This document shows, in pieces, positions 13,085 through 17,279 of a DNA stretch of 32,000 nucleotides. The DNA lies in assembly GCA_965234515.1 (NCBI GenBank), contig OZ248467.1, positions 2,634,105 through 2,666,104 of the forward strand, in the 5' to 3' direction. Every line of letters starts with the position of its first letter. Within the stretch, counting starts at the first letter, position 1. The translations under genes and the position numbers were made by a program. The notes under the pieces are model-generated. The model saw only the letters and a program-made list of their open reading frames with translations, did not search any database and had not been told where the DNA came from. Origin of the DNA: Mycobacteriaceae bacterium (GTDB taxonomy: Bacteria > Actinomycetota > Actinomycetes > Mycobacteriales > Mycobacteriaceae).

Positions 13085-14017
13085 GTGATGTCGACGAGCA
13101 CGACGTTCAATCGGCTGTCCCCCGGGGCCAAAGTTGGCCTGATCGTCGGTGCCATTGCGCTGATGCTTGCACTGGCCAACGGGTCCCTGCCGTTGGGCAT
13201 CGTCGGTGTCGCTGCGCTGGCTGGCGTTGCCTGGACCGCCTACTCCCCCGGCCGGGCCACGTCGGAGTTGACGCCGTGGCCGATGCCGGCCGACCTTCGC
13301 GAACTGGCGGCCGCTCTGGCTCGGCCCATCGACCCGACGCCGCAGCGCGTGCTTCCCCCGCATGAGAAGGCGGCCGTCATCGCCAAGGTCGCCACCACCG
13401 AGGATGAGTTTTCCCGCCTCGTCGCCGACAAACCCCCGGCGTGGCCGTGGGCACTGTTCACCTCGGTGGTGCTGCGACGCCGCAACGCCGTCGCGGCGCG
13501 ACTGCGCGCCGTCGCCTCGGGCTATCAACCTCATCCGGGGGCGGCCCCGTTGAGCGGCCGGGCCTACTCCGGCGTCGTCTACACGGCGATGACGTCCATC
13601 GTCGATCTCGTCGCGCAGTTGGAGCAGTTCATGCTCAGCCCCGCCTTCGAGGGCGCATTCGGCAAGTTCACCGATGACAGCGATGCCGACCCCGACGCGA
13701 TCATCAGCGTCGCCAACCGGCTGATGGATTACCACGACGGTCTGCTCCGCGACGCCGAGCAGTGCTTGCAGACCCCGGTCCTTGGCGAGGCCCGCGTCTT
13801 CGTCCAGGACGCGGGCAACTTCGCTCTCTGTCCGCTGCTGGGCTATCAGAAATTCTTCACGACGATGTGCGCCCGTGTCGGCGAAGCCCAGGATCTGTTG
13901 CCCTACACCAGTCGCGGCGAGGTCGTCGCCCTCGATGACGCGAATCTGACGATGACGCTCCCCGACGGGCTGACCGATCAGGTGGTCGCCCACATCCAGA
14001 GATTCACCGAGGCCTGA
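13085..14017 (+). CDS. Hypothetical two-TM membrane-anchored protein with an uncharacterised cytoplasmic domain
   Basis: Good GC3 bias and protein-like composition. Two N-terminal hydrophobic helices (VGLIVGAIALMLALA, LGIVGVAALAGVAW) precede about 250 aa with no motif I recognise. The start is GTG 13085 or ATG 13088, after GAGGGGG. The 3' end overlaps the convergent gene by 14 nt. Confidence 0.6.
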   Translation: MMSTSTTFNRLSPGAKVGLIVGAIALMLALANGSLPLGIVGVAALAGVAWTAYSPGRATSELTPWPMPADLRELAAALARPIDPTPQRVLPPHEKAAVIAKVATTEDEFSRLVADKPPAWPWALFTSVVLRRRNAVAARLRAVASGYQPHPGAAPLSGRAYSGVVYTAMTSIVDLVAQLEQFMLSPAFEGAFGKFTDDSDADPDAIISVANRLMDYHDGLLRDAEQCLQTPVLGEARVFVQDAGNFALCPLLGYQKFFTTMCARVGEAQDLLPYTSRGEVVALDDANLTMTLPDGLTDQVVAHIQRFTEA

Positions 14018-14987
14018 CGGGATCGCGCGCCACGAAGACGATCTCCAGGCCGGCGTCGGCCACGATGTCCATCGCCCGCTCGATGGCACTGTCGATCCAG
14101 TCGCGCCCGTTGTTGAAGACGCCTCCGCCGATGTGGGTCAACAGCACGATGGTGGAGCCACCGGCACTGGCCTGTTCGACGGCGGCCAGCATGAGCGCTT
14201 CGTAGGACGCCTCTAACACCAGTCGAGCGAACGGCTCCCAATCATTGCGGGGCAGTGTGGAGTAGCCCACCGGCAGCGCCGAGCAGTACGCCTGCGAGAC
14301 GCGCCGGCCGCTGCCGTCGGTGACTTCGACATTGCGGTGCAGACCGATGGCCAACCTGGCGCGCAGTGCGTCTCGGTCGTTCTCGGGCATGGTGGCCAAC
14401 AGCCGACTGATCGCGGATAGACCCTCTGCGGTGCAGAGCGCATAACCGTTCTGCATGTTCCACAGCGTGCTCACCGGCAGACCGGTCAGGTCCGACAGTG
14501 CGGCACCGACACCTGCGAGGGCATCGAGCTGATGGGTGCGGGTCTGGCCGATGCGATCGCCCACCGGAACAAAATAGTTCCGGTAGATCGTGCCCGCGGC
14601 CGCCGCCATCGCACATGCCGGACCCTGGGTGGGATCGCCGACGTAACCGGTCACACCATCTTCGGGGGTGCGGTGTTGCGAGACCATCTCCAGCAGGTTG
14701 AACTGGGAGGCGACCTGGAACAGCGCACCGTCGAACTCGGGCTTGGAGTGCAGTGGACCGACATCTGCAACCACCGTCCGCGACGAACTGCGTTGCCCCC
14801 GATCCGGATTGACCCGGGCCCGCAGATCGGCCAGCGTCGGCAGGGTGAGTTCGCCGATGCCGTAGCGCTTGCCGTTGACCGTCGAGACGAGCTCCTCGCC
14901 CTCGACGGTCAATCGGCGTTGCACAGCGTCATAGCCGTCGCTCTCGCTGAACCCGACAAGTTTTTCAAACCAGTCCCGGGTGGCCAT
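14004..14987 (-). CDS. PARG-like / macrodomain-fold protein (divergent, lacks the GGG..QEE signature)
   Basis: ATG at 14987 follows GGGAGG by 6 nt and lies 1 nt after the upstream stop. By eye the layout parallels bacterial-type PARG (DUF2263). LFQVASQFNLLE corresponds to LNFASAKNPGGG, TQGPACAMAAAAGTIY to AQEESxARSSxLY, and LLTHIGGGVFNN to LGAWGCGVFGN (the diphosphate loop). Confidence 0.4.
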   Translation of the reverse strand: MATRDWFEKLVGFSESDGYDAVQRRLTVEGEELVSTVNGKRYGIGELTLPTLADLRARVNPDRGQRSSSRTVVADVGPLHSKPEFDGALFQVASQFNLLEMVSQHRTPEDGVTGYVGDPTQGPACAMAAAAGTIYRNYFVPVGDRIGQTRTHQLDALAGVGAALSDLTGLPVSTLWNMQNGYALCTAEGLSAISRLLATMPENDRDALRARLAIGLHRNVEVTDGSGRRVSQAYCSALPVGYSTLPRNDWEPFARLVLEASYEALMLAAVEQASAGGSTIVLLTHIGGGVFNNGRDWIDSAIERAMDIVADAGLEIVFVARDPVRPR

Positions 14988-14988
14988 G

Positions 14989-15623: not shown

Positions 15624-16382
15624 TTACCGCTCCACCCGGGCCAACTCCCCAAGCACCCCCTCAAGCTCGACTTCGTCGAGGATCCCGCGCCGATACGCGG
15701 CCTTGGCCATGTCGTGCAGCAGCGGCAGGGTGAACCGGCGCCGTGAGCTCTCGCCGACGCGGACCGGTGTGATCGGCGTGCCGTCTTTGCGCAGGAACAC
15801 GTTATTCCGCAGCGCCCATCTGACCCAGTTCTGCGACTTGCGGAAAAGCCTCGCGACGTCGGCAGTGCCGAAGTAGGTCACGTCTGGCTCGGCACTGGCG
15901 TTGCGCGACGATCCTTCAGCCAACAGTGCGTCGATCTCGACGCCCAGCTTCTGGATGCCGGCCGCGGCGATGGCGGCGTGATCGAGAGCGTCGACGGTTC
16001 GCACTTCATGGCGTAGCGCCATGTCGATGGCGTTGTAGCCGCCCTGGGCCGGGCACTCAAAGAGGTGCGGGCCCATCCGCAGCGTCAGACCGTGCCGCTG
16101 GAGCACGAGGCACAGGCGGCGGATGTGCTCCTCCCGGGCGAGGTCCTCGCGGGGATAGGGCACCCAGATGCACCGTCGGGTGGCGATGGCGTGGCTCAGT
16201 GCGGCAACGACCTGCTCGACCTCGGCAAGATCATCGGCTGCGCCGGCTTCCCCGACCTCGAAGGCGAAGATCCCGGAGATGATCACCCCGTGCTCGGCTG
16301 CCCGGACCGTGAGGTCCTCGGCCCGCTGTTCGGTGGCCGTATCCCCCAATACAAGCACCGCATCAGTTTTCGTGTGTGTCAT
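15624..16382 (-). CDS. Hypothetical protein: resolvase-like (probably non-catalytic) N-terminal domain plus MerR/excisionase-like HTH C-terminal domain
   Basis: Strong RBS GGGGGAGGG. The N-terminal pattern AVLVLGDTATEQ...GVIISGIF...IWVPYPREDLAR parallels serine-recombinase catalytic domains, but the RVS motif reads GDT. The C-terminal FGTADVARLF...RRRFTLPLLHDMAKAAYRRGIL resembles a MerR-type HTH. Confidence 0.45.
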   Translation of the reverse strand: MTHTKTDAVLVLGDTATEQRAEDLTVRAAEHGVIISGIFAFEVGEAGAADDLAEVEQVVAALSHAIATRRCIWVPYPREDLAREEHIRRLCLVLQRHGLTLRMGPHLFECPAQGGYNAIDMALRHEVRTVDALDHAAIAAAGIQKLGVEIDALLAEGSSRNASAEPDVTYFGTADVARLFRKSQNWVRWALRNNVFLRKDGTPITPVRVGESSRRRFTLPLLHDMAKAAYRRGILDEVELEGVLGELARVER

Positions 16383-16559
16383 CGATACCCTCCCCCTTGT
16401 TCGAATGTGGACGTTGTGGACTCTTTCCGTAGTGGTTAGTGAATTTCATGTTGTTAGTGCGTATCAGCGACCCGGTATTGCCGCGATCCCCCCGGGGCTG
16501 CCGATAGCGTAGCACGCATATATTGGGCTTTTCGCACGCTAAATGCTAGCCTGATCCCT
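16383..16559. promoter_or_regulatory. AT-enriched divergent control region with three pairs of short repeats
   Basis: TGTGGAC x2 (16406-16412, 16415-16421). GTTAGTG x2 (16435-16441, 16453-16459). TAGCGT/ACGCTA inverted pair (16505-16510, 16536-16541) flanking TATATT (16519-16524). A TAGCCT box ends 7 nt before the ATG at 16560. Confidence 0.4.
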
Positions 16560-17279
16560 ATGCGCAACAATGAGATACCAGATTCAGATATCTCAAGGGT
16601 AGCGGAAGCCACCGACAAGTTTTGCTACGAGTTTCCCCGTGCCATCGTCGCCGTGGACACCGCGCTGTTAACTATCCACCCCGATCGGGGGCTCCTGGTG
16701 GTGGAGATGGAGCGCGGAGACACCGGCAAGTGGGCACTTCCGGGCACCTTTTTGCGTGAACACGAAACACTGGCCGGCGCCGTCGAGCGTTCACTGGACG
16801 AGAAGCTCGGGGTGCGGGACATCCGGCCGGCACAGTTGTACGTCTTCGACGATCCACACCGAGATGAGCGCCACTGGGTGCTGTCCGTGGCCCACGTCGC
16901 GGTAGTCCGCCCGGACCAGTTGACGTCGCTCGGTCGCGGAACTGCGAAAAGCACCCGGCTCGTCTCGGTGGACCGTCCCGGGGAGTTGGCCTGGGACCAC
17001 CCCAATATCGTCAAGCGCGCCAAGGAGTACGTGCGGTCACGCTACGAGGAGCAACCCGACCCCGACCGGCTACTGGGAAACACGTTCACACTGCGCGAAC
17101 TGCGACTGGTCCACGACGCCGTCGCCGATAACGACGAGCCGCCGTGGGATCGCGACGCCTTTCGACGCCGGATGCACAATCTCCTCGTACCCACCGGCGG
17201 GAAATCCGAAAACACCGGTTCACGAGGCCGGCCCGCTCAACTGTTCCGCCGACGGTCGGCGCGCGACCGGTCGCTCTAG
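16560..17279 (+). CDS. nrtR: NrtR-like Nudix-related transcriptional regulator (degenerate Nudix box plus C-terminal winged HTH)
   Basis: The Nudix-fold block KWALPGTFLREHETLAGAVERSLDEKLGV has the catalytic REUXEE reduced to RSLDEK. The C-terminal FTLRELRLVHDAV...DRDAFRRRMHNLL...GRPAQLFRR matches the NrtR wHTH pattern (FTLxxLqxvyEai...d+rNFRRK...RPAxLYRF). Confidence 0.7.
   Translation: MRNNEIPDSDISRVAEATDKFCYEFPRAIVAVDTALLTIHPDRGLLVVEMERGDTGKWALPGTFLREHETLAGAVERSLDEKLGVRDIRPAQLYVFDDPHRDERHWVLSVAHVAVVRPDQLTSLGRGTAKSTRLVSVDRPGELAWDHPNIVKRAKEYVRSRYEEQPDPDRLLGNTFTLRELRLVHDAVADNDEPPWDRDAFRRRMHNLLVPTGGKSENTGSRGRPAQLFRRRSARDRSL

Follow-up and report, generated by a model that had tools for sequence, protein, structure and literature searches.

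What does a gene for an NrtR-like regulator do when it faces, across a short control region, an operon encoding a resolvase-like protein, a phosphatase and a protein of an unannotated family (X327)? This arrangement lies in a window (the whole stretch of DNA that was analysed, 32,000 nucleotides) from a member of the Mycobacteriaceae. Its probable role is the inducible clean-up of ADP-ribose (ADPr) tags or signals, and we give about an even chance to the more specific reading, an inducible ADPr-processing module that is a hydrolase-swapped variant of the predicted ARG + R-P phosphatase + Nudix/WYL-TF systems. The features of the locus are as follows:

16560-17279, + strand: NrtR-like regulator gene (239 aa, Nudix domain and wHTH)
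16743-16814: degenerate Nudix box of the regulator (aa 62-85)
17070-17249: wHTH of the regulator (aa 171-230)
16383-16559, no strand: divergent control region (177 bp, AT-enriched)
16490-16497: GC palindrome CCCCGGGG in the control region
16510-16523: GCAC-containing element TAGCACGCATATAT in the control region
16532-16544: GCAC-containing element TCGCACGCTAAAT in the control region
16544-16552: extended -10-like element TGn-TAGCCT, ending 7 nt upstream of the regulator ATG
16382-15624, - strand: gene 1, resolvase-like/DUF7229 (252 aa), first in the operon
15648-15878: DUF7229 MerR/excisionase-like HTH, C-terminal in gene 1 (aa 169-245)
15549-14989, - strand: gene 2, CX5R phosphatase (186 aa)
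15160-15186, - strand: phosphatase active-site motif H122-C123-WGGKG-R129-T, read from the sequence
14987-14004, - strand: gene 3, X327 (327 aa, macro/PARG-like fold)
14688-14708, - strand: X327 family motif SQFNLLE (aa 94-100)
14613-14630, - strand: X327 family motif TQGPAC (aa 120-125)
14115-14129, - strand: X327 family motif GGGVF (aa 287-291)
13085-14017, + strand: up310, probable accessory gene (310 aa)

The reading frames agree with an earlier note on this DNA in all four genes, their coordinates and strands, and in the single nucleotide that separates the phosphatase TGA from the X327 ATG (tga-c-ATG). Just upstream of the gene 1 ATG is GGGGGAGGG; gene 2, 74 nt from the TAA stop of gene 1, has AAGGAG just upstream of its ATG, and for X327 a GGGAGG lies within the 3' end of the phosphatase gene, to which X327 is translationally coupled. 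Translation from an alternative GTG (15011) would lengthen X327 to 335 aa, whereas its homologues start at the ATG position. The note had also recognised no ADP-ribosyltransferase, and none was found among the ~25 window ORFs scanned. TA modules lie on both sides of the locus, a PADLOC search gave no match there, and except for the promoter region no strong compositional anomaly was seen. Convergent with X327, and overlapping it by 14 bp at the 3' ends, is up310, which has no Pfam or NCBIfam match and whose N-terminal ~50 aa are strongly hydrophobic, with two apparent membrane helices (hydropathy >1.6 over aa 11-53). Three related loci (L003, L004 and L123) have an up310 homologue immediately downstream of the NrtR-like gene, and in a fourth (L122) one follows a Metallophos phosphatase; other loci, e.g. 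L085-L087, have none.

The regulator matches NrtR_WHD (2.9e-12) and NUDIX (8.2e-9) in Pfam, and scores 64 bits against the NCBIfam NrtR equivalog model, the cut-off of which is 400. Its Nudix box reads R-S-L-D-E-K, as opposed to the catalytic consensus R-E-U-x-E-E, which would fit a sensor better than an enzyme and upholds the earlier proposal of an NrtR-like sensor. Characterised NrtR proteins are repressors and autorepressors that respond to ADPr (PMC6800001; PMC9503650).

The control region is indeed AT-enriched (53.7% G+C versus 66.2% for the window). Of the repeats reported for it, there is a 17-nt direct repeat, GTGGTTAGTGAATTTCA / GTTGTTAGTGCGTATCA at 16432 and 16450 (spanning 16432-16466), the copies of which agree at 13/17 positions; this is only modestly above chance, since 34 of 1000 Markov shuffles do as well, and the closest relatives have a single copy. 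The TAGCATTT / -10 block is unchanged across seven related loci, and the regulator transcript is predicted to be leaderless. Three relatives (L003, L004 and L044) carry at the equivalent site, beside the regulator -10, an 8-N7-8 palindrome, ATATGTGC-N7-GCACATAT, which has the same geometry as the validated mycobacterial NrtR box, GTTTTCGA-N7-TCGAAAAC (PMC6800001), but a different sequence. The window's own intergenic region has no clear palindromic operator (best 8-N7-8 match 5/8), and searches of the control region returned no Rfam family and no terminator-like site.

Gene 2, previously proposed to be a CX5R phosphatase, exceeds the cut-offs of both Tc-R-P (4.7e-13) and PTP-SAK (7.9e-11) in Pfam, and by sequence its product belongs to the Cys-based phosphatases of the rhodanese-phosphatase / DSP-PTPase superfamily; D93, 30 residues upstream of the active-site motif, is a candidate general acid. 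These best-matching models derive from RNA-repair “Swiss army knife” proteins and toxin systems. The resolvase-like/MerR-HTH character suggested for gene 1 holds weakly. Its product matches DUF7229 (8.3e-25), and its AF2 model (pLDDT 78) has a b-a-b-a-b-a-b topology followed by a long helix and the HTH, with best Foldseek matches to gamma-delta resolvase and 3guv (E 5e-3) and, for the C-terminus, to MerR-type regulators. The alignment shows no conserved catalytic serine in the N-terminal resolvase-like alpha/beta domain, the position aligned with the resolvase serine varying among homologues. The family (105 matches) is found in Mycobacteriaceae only, and the gene 1 product presumably binds DNA.

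X327 has no sequence match in Pfam, NCBIfam, PADLOC, PHROG or PDB. Its AF2 model (pLDDT 97, pTM 0.94) has as best Foldseek matches DrPARG and TcPARG (E 1e-5, TM 0.42-0.57), followed by viral macrodomains; giant-virus orthologues align at TM 0.86-0.88. Structural modelling thus suggests an unannotated family with a macro/PARG-like fold, in line with the PARG-like macrodomain postulated earlier, and the relation is seen at the fold level only, hhalign of X327 against two macro sequences having found nothing. A G[VIA][YF]G-type glycine-rich loop, the diphosphate-binding motif of macrodomains, is kept in 50 of 62 family members. The catalytic-loop motif Nx6GG[VLI] occurs in four of the 62, and the GGGx6-8QEE and DUF4804 motifs in none. 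All three published macrodomain catalytic-loop motifs are absent from the window's X327, which could therefore be a binder instead of a hydrolase, or a hydrolase with unknown chemistry.

The X327 family is very large (3,490 clusters at 50% identity). Its members occur in bacteria, on many giant-virus contigs and on 339 plasmids, of which 290 are conjugative; searches of 50,697 GenBank phage records and of PHROGs gave no homologue. In eight of 20 long representatives of the family X327 is fused with PTP-SAK/Tc-R-P domains, both orders being seen, and a phosphatase of this type lies within 5 kb of X327 in 29 of 81 loci (same-strand adjacent or fused in 21). The phosphatase of fused relatives also matches PTP-NADK-type models, and one representative carries a fused classical Macro domain. 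Some two thirds of X327 genes stand alone in unrelated neighbourhoods, with neither a phosphatase nor a regulator close by. The co-conservation called for by the earlier note holds across phyla for the phosphatase and X327, which are paired and repeatedly fused, and within Mycobacteriaceae for the four-gene layout and the NrtR-like linkage.

From these data we infer the following scheme. The catalytically dead Nudix-wHTH regulator most likely represses the divergent operon, and probably also itself, until ADPr or a close derivative binds it and takes it off the DNA. The translationally coupled, metal-independent CX5R phosphatase and X327 would form the enzymatic core, with X327 binding an ADP-ribosyl conjugate or ADPr-derived nucleotide for cleavage at the distal ribose, and the phosphatase stripping a phosphate (e.g. 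1''-, 2'- or terminal) from the substrate or product of X327. ADPr freed in this way may act as the inducer, closing a feedback loop, and the resolvase-like/DUF7229 protein, which accompanies the regulator, may add another DNA-binding component. A conflict setting is favoured by the presence of X327 on conjugative plasmids and in giant viruses, together with the precedent of orphan bacterial PARGs that shield against an RNA-targeting ART toxin (PMC11833690).

Several other explanations have to be weighed. The module could extend an NrtR-type NAD regulon as a housekeeping system in which X327 and the phosphatase turn phosphorylated or acylated ADPr, i.e. ADP-ribose-1''-phosphate (from tRNA 2'-phosphate removal), O-acetyl-ADPr (from sirtuins) or 2'-phospho-ADPr (from NADP), into recyclable ADPr. 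Appr1p and O-acetyl-ADPr are classical macrodomain substrates (PMC9503650), NrtR regulons concern NAD homeostasis (PMC6800001), the PTP-NADK-type matches provide a link to NADP, and most X327 genes stand alone on chromosomes in ordinary surroundings, just as the locus itself has no compositional anomaly. However, the locus has no gene of NAD biosynthesis or salvage next to it, the regulator falls well short of the NrtR equivalog cut-off and the relatives' operator differs in sequence from the nadABC NrtR box; moreover, a patchy, modular family, enriched among giant viruses and conjugative plasmids, whose close relatives swap or lose components is atypical of core metabolism, and we consider such salvage somewhat unlikely. 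Repair of nucleic acids is a sub-case of the ADPr-processing explanation and does not contradict it: X327 would strip ADPr from DNA or RNA (bases, 2'-OH or phosphate ends) after attack by ADP-ribosyltransferases that target DNA or RNA (e.g. DarT-like or RhsP2-like toxins), the phosphatase would trim a terminal phosphate to leave ligatable or functional ends, and the resolvase-like/MerR-HTH protein, a predicted DNA binder, would supply the DNA contact. PARG-type macrodomains do reverse 2'-OH ADP-ribosylation of RNA, guarding cells from RhsP2, and macrodomains reverse ADPr on phosphate ends (PMC11833690). The RNA-repair and toxin-system origin of the phosphatase models agrees with this, as do the WYL-domain regulators, tied to RNA-damage sensing (PMC9503650), downstream of X327 in two loci. 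The operon nevertheless lacks a ligase, kinase, nuclease or helicase, and otherwise complete loci (L003, L004 and L010) lack the resolvase-like gene; we consider this specific role unlikely.

X327, with or without the phosphatase, might instead destroy ADPr-derived immune messengers (cADPR isomers, His-ADPR, ADPr-ATP), being carried by mobile elements to blunt TIR/Thoeris-type immunity, with the chromosomal copy domesticated or regulatory. Its plasmid and giant-virus distribution is compatible with this, macrodomains are known binders of ADPr-derived signals (PMC9503650), and on one Klebsiella plasmid 2 kb separate the X327 gene from a Thoeris pair (TIR + ThsA-macro). Yet an IS element lies between the two, that X327 gene is outside any recognised anti-defence (leading) region, neither the 50,697 phage records nor PHROGs gave a homologue, and the window's chromosomal, repressor-controlled copy near TA modules fits a host-side function better; we regard counter-defence as quite improbable. 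That the genes are chance neighbours or mobile-element remnants is very improbable. Gene 1 does resemble a recombinase whose catalytic serine is gone, the locus has TA modules on either side and each component is absent from some relative, but the 1-nt stop-start spacing, the repeated independent fusions and a divergent regulator-operon layout common to at least nine loci at 45-85% protein identity all argue for a functional unit. The ADPr-processing explanation has its own difficulties in the missing catalytic-loop motifs, the purely fold-level macro likeness, the lack of a clear operator in the window, the many solitary X327 genes, the null PADLOC and phage searches, the unremarkable composition outside the promoter region, and an analogy model that is itself a prediction.

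That model is the computational prediction by Iyer et al. 2022 (PMC9503650) of ARG-centred systems, which combine an ADPr hydrolase, a phosphatase of the rhodanese-phosphatase superfamily and a Nudix-HTH or WYL repressor, have no transferase nearby, and are predicted to reverse ADP-ribosylation imposed externally by phage or toxin transferases. Sister loci connect the window's module to them. In one (L083), an ARG-DSPc fusion neighbours homologues of the window's regulator (52% identity) and resolvase-like protein (47% identity); in another (L081) the regulator and resolvase-like genes occur with a calcineurin-like phosphatase, and a third (L123) has the window's layout with phosphatase and X327 fused. 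Because the same regulator and resolvase-like gene are paired with an ARG-phosphatase fusion, X327 appears to stand in functionally for ARG. The WYL-domain regulators downstream of X327 in two loci are a further parallel to the ARG systems. The description of the system as undescribed thus needs qualifying: template and mechanism are shared with the predicted ARG systems, whereas the hydrolase-like family and the resolvase-like partner are new.

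The locus comprises a minus-strand operon of three genes and a divergently transcribed plus-strand gene, and the positions that the earlier note had assigned to all four agree exactly with those found here:

16560-17279, plus strand: regulator gene, encoding an NrtR-like protein of a Nudix domain and a winged helix-turn-helix, 239 aa
16382-15624, minus strand: gene 1, encoding a resolvase-like/DUF7229 protein, 252 aa; ribosome-binding site GGGGGAGGG
15549-14989, minus strand: gene 2, encoding a Cys phosphatase, 186 aa; ribosome-binding site AAGGAG
14987-14004, minus strand: gene 3, encoding the protein that, with its family, is called X327, 327 aa; ribosome-binding site GGGAGG

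Each of the minus-strand genes is preceded by a purine-rich ribosome-binding site, and the stop codon of gene 2 is separated from the ATG of gene 3 by a single base, both as claimed from the sequence; 74 nt lie between genes 1 and 2. For gene 3 the ATG is favoured over an upstream GTG because homologues start one or two residues before a conserved WFE.

X327 has no match by sequence in Pfam (E <= 0.01), NCBIfam, PADLOC or PHROGs, nor in the PDB, whether searched by phmmer or with a profile of 62 X327 family sequences, the Pfam models without a match including Macro, PARG_cat, DUF2263 and DUF4804. Comparison of the family profile by hhalign with the Macro domain of the fusion protein P0268 and with a plasmid-encoded ThsA-type macro protein gave a probability of ~1% or less. 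The AF2 model built from the 62-sequence alignment (pLDDT 97, pTM 0.94) has its best Foldseek matches in the poly(ADP-ribose) glycohydrolases (PARGs) of Deinococcus and Thermomonospora (E 1e-5, probability 1.00, TM 0.42-0.57, 10-14% identity), followed by viral and archaeal macrodomains, the matches as a whole ranging from E 1e-5 to 1e-3 at probability 1.00. X327 is thus predicted to have a macro fold, a mixed beta-sheet between helices, an assignment that is purely structural since profile comparisons with macro sequences gave no signal.

The motifs of the family are its own. The PARG motif GGG-x6-8-QEE is found in 0/62 members, the topologically matching stretch being GYVGDPTQGPAC, and X327 is therefore not to be filed as a PARG. 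Of the term “PARG-like macrodomain” used in the earlier note, the macro/PARG fold stands on the strength of the AF2 model and Foldseek, but a strict PARG identity does not. The MacroD loop Nx6GG[VLI] occurs in four of the 62 members, the window protein not being among them, and the DUF4804 motif in none. The near-invariant motifs are SQFNxLE, TQGPAC, NGY and GGGAFGN, the last of these being the consensus of a candidate diphosphate loop, G[VIA][YF]G, that is present in 50 of the 62; in the window protein it reads GGGVFNN, the last G of the loop being replaced by N.

The reading of gene 2 as a CX5R phosphatase is borne out by Pfam matches to Tc-R-P (4.7e-13) and PTP-SAK (7.9e-11), with scores of 50 bits for PF22785 and 42.7 bits for PF22784 against a cut-off of 27. 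The P-loop HCx5R(S/T) is complete, as H122-C123-WGGKG-R129-T, and D93, 30 residues N-terminal, is a candidate general acid. To judge from its sequence, gene 2 encodes a Cys phosphatase of the rhodanese-phosphatase (R-P)/DSP-PTPase superfamily.

Gene 1 is harder to place. Its C-terminus is DUF7229 (Pfam 8.3e-25), and in its AF2 model (pLDDT 78) strands and helices succeed one another as in the catalytic domain of a resolvase, with a long helix and a small HTH after them. Foldseek ranks gamma-delta resolvase, 3guv and Tn3 resolvase at the top (E 5e-3 to 6e-2, TM 0.24-0.47) and pairs the C-terminus with MerR-type regulators, the matches of gene 1 ranging over E 5e-3 to 0.2. The resolvase serine motif YxRVSTxxQ is replaced by LGDTATEQ, and the position equivalent to the nucleophilic serine varies among T, S, V, R, Q and H in 25 homologues; because it is not conserved, gene 1 is unlikely to encode an active recombinase. 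The resolvase-like/MerR-HTH claim is thus favoured by strand order and by the Foldseek ranking, but the E-values are weak and the catalytic serine position is not conserved, and while it is reasonable to call gene 1 “resolvase-like, inactive, DNA-binding”, the support for this is weak. In the relatives P0400 and P0403 the C-terminal region is of a different, recombinase-like type. The DUF7229 HTH (15648-15878) also matches phage families of no assigned function (phrog_33970, 1.1e-12; phrog_3092, 1.4e-10), and a literature search on DUF7229 found nothing specific.

NrtR is the Nudix-related transcriptional regulator of NAD metabolism (Rodionov 2008, Huang 2009, Gao 2019). The divergent regulator has the NrtR-type architecture ascribed to it, with PF00293 at aa 39-149 (8.2e-9) and PF21906 at aa 171-230 (2.9e-12), both above cut-off. 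It misses the NCBIfam equivalog for NrtR, NF050029, scoring 64.2 bits where 400 are required, and its Nudix box reads R-S-L-D-E-K against the catalytic consensus R-E-U-x-E-E, a departure that its close relatives share; R-E-L-R-E-E is retained by a distant one from M. mantenii. Because of this low score and the degenerate Nudix box, the protein appears to belong to a sensor-type paralogous subfamily and not to be an orthologue of the NAD regulator. The genes beside it are not those of NAD biosynthesis or salvage, which agrees with the earlier statement that this is not the usual NrtR regulon.

The 177-bp divergent region is indeed AT-enriched, with a G+C of 53.7% against 66.2% for the window. 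Of the repeats reported in it, there is an imperfect 17-nt direct repeat, but it is only modestly unusual, being equalled in 34 of 1000 shuffles. A search of the region against Rfam returned no family, and a scan detected no terminator and no credible sigma-70 consensus promoter (one match, intragenic and not exceeding chance). In the regulator orientation, AAATGCTA(G/C)... lies directly 5' of the regulator start codon in all seven aligned loci; TGC-TAGCCT in the window stops 7 nt short of the ATG, a position that suggests a putative extended -10 element and a possibly leaderless regulator transcript. Upstream of the -10-like block, three relatives (L003, L004 and L044) carry ATATGTGC-N7-GCACATAT. 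In its 8-N7-8 geometry, though not in its sequence, this palindrome agrees with GTTTTCGA-N7-TCGAAAAC, the NrtR box whose binding was shown by experiment in M. smegmatis (PMC6800001). Thus the regulator resembles NrtR in its Nudix domain and C-terminal winged helix, in a divergent (auto)regulatory layout and, in relatives, in the geometry of the putative operator, and differs from it in equivalog score and, in those relatives, in the sequence of that operator. The window's intergenic region has neither a canonical NrtR box nor any 8-N7-8 palindrome, its best match of that form being 5/8; the clade of the window, L085 and L086 retains only one good half-site-like element, TAGCACGCATAT, and other GCAC-containing elements. 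A GC-rich palindrome, CCCCGGGG (inside AGCCCCGGGGGGATCGC), lies at 16490-16497 in the middle of the AT-enriched region, is kept in L085 and L086, and could be a candidate site for the resolvase-like/MerR-HTH protein.

The family is large, with 3,490 clusters at 50% identity (E <= 1e-3), 833 of them with E <= 1e-30, in Actinobacteria, Alpha-, Beta-, Gamma- and Deltaproteobacteria, Planctomycetes, Chloroflexi, Bacteroidetes and others. A phosphatase HMM match lies within 5 kb of X327 in 29 of 81 loci, 21 of these 29 phosphatases being either fused to X327 or its immediate neighbour on the same strand. Among 20 long X327 representatives scanned, eight are fusions to the same type of phosphatase, in either order, and a classical Macro domain, an extra alpha/beta-hydrolase domain and a FYVE finger were each found once. 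Apart from this the genes around X327 vary from locus to locus, with WYL (2 loci) and HTH_3 proteins as the only further regulators to recur; outside Mycobacteriaceae there is no conserved neighbour besides the phosphatase and the two WYL regulators, and ARG (ADP-ribosylglycohydrolase), ART (ADP-ribosyltransferase), NADAR and sirtuin are not among the frequent families near X327. The neighbourhood conservation that the earlier note had proposed to check therefore holds for the phosphatase, but linkage of the NrtR-like and DUF7229 genes to X327 is confined to Mycobacteriaceae, where components shuffle between loci.

Gene content of related X327 loci in Mycobacteriaceae
L006, L007, L044, L086: regulator, DUF7229, phosphatase, X327
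L085: regulator (cut by contig end), DUF7229, phosphatase, X327
L005: distant regulator, DUF7229, phosphatase, X327
L003, L004, L010: regulator, phosphatase, X327
L123: regulator, DUF7229, fused phosphatase-X327
L087: DUF7229 and X327 only

In L087 (4240-6011), with neither a phosphatase nor an NrtR-like gene, the DUF7229 stop overlaps the X327 start, and X327 can therefore couple directly to the resolvase-like protein.

On 339 plasmids there are homologues of X327 (47% identity); 290 of these plasmids are conjugative, and most come from Klebsiella and E. coli, whose conjugative IncF plasmids commonly carry them; one example is L120 (NZ_CP102886.1, 2713-3708). Among the matches listed, all plasmid homologues are annotated “hypothetical protein”, as is the family in every plasmid or genome record where a name was seen. 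On the Klebsiella plasmid pKH2-3-mcr8.1 the gene follows that of an SOS-response-associated peptidase, and a TIR and ThsA-macro (type II Thoeris) pair lies 2 kb from it with IS903B in between; on a Citrobacter IncFII plasmid it is found between traI and repA. No plasmid DNA near-identical to that of the window was found. Giant viruses encode clear orthologues (TM 0.86-0.88, 29-34% identity), including a fusion to a RING finger; the carriers include Yasminevirus, Bodo saltans virus, Klosneuvirus and many GVMAG contigs (BFVD A0A5K0UBT0, A0A2H4UUF0 and A0A2H4UVR4; L092-L119), and 28 low-G+C IMG/VR contigs have an X327 gene. Long cellular relatives with FYVE or tandem X327 repeats (P0211, P0121 and P0137) are also found, which together with the giant-virus orthologues hints at a role in eukaryote-virus interplay as well. 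The 50,697 phage records searched contained no X327 homologue.

The locus is chromosomal, in a window of 66% G+C, and has no strong compositional anomaly. Its surroundings are TA-rich, as had been noted, and include the following:

17439-18124: Phd/PIN pair
18858-19226: HicB-like antitoxin
20623-21242: RHH/PIN pair
13085-14017, plus strand: up310, 310 aa, a protein that matches no family and whose N-terminus has two apparent membrane helices
8413-11100, minus strand: 895-aa protein with Big_9/cadherin-like repeats and a PI-PLC-X domain

PIN-type pairs also flank relatives (L085 3196-3839; L086 2056-2714; L087 3395-4061 and 6185-6846; L123 949-1639). The flanking TA pairs (Phd/PIN, RHH/PIN, PSK/PIN) are of their own families at each locus, and could reflect a shared island hot-spot or mere mycobacterial TA density. 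The 3' end of up310 overlaps that of X327 by 14 bp. Its 185 homologues are all of the Mycobacterium lineage, and they directly follow the NrtR-like gene in L003, L004 and L123 and a calcineurin-like (Metallophos) gene in L122, so up310 is probably an unrecognised accessory component. Proteins similar to the Big_9/cadherin one recur near the system in L001, L086, L123 and L124, thus indicating local synteny among these freshwater Mycobacteriaceae. The earlier statement that no ART is recognisable holds for the ~25 window ORFs scanned against Pfam, among which there is likewise no sirtuin and no ARG.

On the whole the original observation is confirmed and its interpretation at the level of domains was essentially right. 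We think the chances about even that the locus is a repressor-controlled eraser or processor of ADP-ribose (ADPr) conjugates or derivatives; the rival readings diverge mainly on the substrate, which may be soluble metabolites, nucleic-acid adducts or immune signals. A bolder reading, which we consider rather improbable, is that X327 represents a new catalytic class of macrodomain, ranging from bacteria and conjugative plasmids to giant viruses and eukaryotes, in which SQFNxLE and TQGPAC would be the active-site motifs and the substrate or linkage would be new, for example a phosphorylated ADP-ribosyl adduct or an ADPr-derived nucleotide requiring the coupled Cys phosphatase. With a dedicated ADPr-sensing repressor this would make a stand-alone “eraser without writer” immunity module against foreign ARTs.

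ADP-ribosylation is employed by phages, toxins and immune systems, and to our knowledge host-side erasers without a cognate writer have barely been explored. The only regulated eraser-only system that we know to have been proposed combines an ARG, a phosphatase and a Nudix or WYL repressor, and is a prediction; the window has the same regulatory and phosphatase chassis with a different hydrolase-like protein. As a very large, unannotated macro-fold branch without known catalytic signatures, X327 makes the locus a good experimental target, and the regulator, phosphatase and X327 form a tractable three-protein system for the idea of eraser-only immunity. With a substrate and a name, the family would extend the macrodomain superfamily by one class, as happened with DUF4804/MavL, and a widespread plasmid gene would be explained.

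Several known systems share parts of this arrangement. With DarTG and other macro-containing TA pairs the locus has in common a macro-fold protein, a mycobacterial host and TA-rich surroundings; unlike them, it has no adjacent DarT-like or other transferase, the partner of X327 is a phosphatase, and there is a dedicated repressor of ligand-sensing type. Bacterial-type PARGs (DUF2263/TIGR02452; T. curvata 3SIH, D. radiodurans 5ZDB) resemble X327 in a macro core with an N-terminal extension, in a glycine-rich loop, in X327 a candidate diphosphate binder, and in often being orphans with no cognate transferase, whereas X327 is ~60 aa longer, has invariant SQFNxLE and TQGPAC motifs and shows no profile-level similarity to them. 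Orphan PARGs can confer immunity to ART toxins (PMC11833690). The arginine-specific macrodomains of the MavL/Larg1/DUF4804 type are a precedent for a signature-less macro-fold clade such as X327: they form a divergent clade without MacroD and PARG signatures, conserved from bacteria to eukaryotes, and yet are true ADP-ribosylhydrolases with a new linkage specificity (PMC10951314). X327 differs from them in its lack of DUF4804 motifs, and neither the MavL nor the Larg1 structure is among its best 50 Foldseek matches.

The closest template is the group of ARG-centric ADPr-removal systems predicted computationally by Iyer, Burroughs, Anantharaman and Aravind (2022, Viruses 14:1977, section 3.8; PMC9503650), in which an ARG with no transferase linked to it is joined to a phosphatase, by coupling or fusion, in 55%, most commonly of the R-P type with a calcineurin-like phosphatase among the alternatives, and a Nudix-HTH or WYL repressor is present in 42%. 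The operons were proposed to be off by default and induced by released ADPr, stripping phage-placed ADPr from host molecules (PMC9503650). Like these, X327 systems occur in Actinobacteria and Proteobacteria, couple or fuse an ADPr-hydrolase-type protein to an R-P phosphatase under a Nudix-HTH or WYL repressor, lack a linked ART or sirtuin as far as the ~25 scanned ORFs of the window show, and are modular and variable in composition. Unlike them, the window has X327 in place of an ARG (PF03747), and two extra genes absent from that paper, the resolvase-like/DUF7229 gene and the small membrane protein up310; neither a chaperone nor an REase gene was detected at the locus, nor one recognisable as ARPP. 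The ARPP family described there is an alternative identity for X327, with which it shares the R-P association, conserved Cys and Gln, and a WYL neighbour. We judge it unlikely, as ARPP is described as a duplicated beta-meander with an inserted barrel, which sets it apart from the X327 model, and its described contexts (HIRAN, secreted deacetylase) are also unlike X327 neighbourhoods.

Since this template already stands in the literature as a prediction, the locus is not a new category, and the word “undescribed” in the earlier note applies to its parts: neither a PARG-like family such as X327 nor a resolvase-like partner is mentioned in PMC9503650, and a literature search for a PARG-like and phosphatase system found nothing specific. 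The sister locus L083 (1534-12132) encodes an ARG-DSPc fusion, an ankyrin protein, an HTH_3+HA protein, an NrtR-like regulator and the resolvase-like P0403, whose C-terminal region is of the different, recombinase type; further along are a 579-aa RNase-H-like protein, an 818-aa SMC/AAA ATPase and a zeta toxin, and together these genes may make up a larger defence island of composite type. Its ARG-DSPc fusion lies beside a regulator 52% identical to that of the window, and its divergent protein is 47% identical to the window's resolvase-like domain; L081 combines DUF7229 and the regulator with a calcineurin-like phosphatase. Because L083 and L081 share the regulator and resolvase-like genes, ARG and X327 appear to be interchangeable cargo of one regulatory chassis, and this analogy is the best available argument that X327 would act on ADPr.
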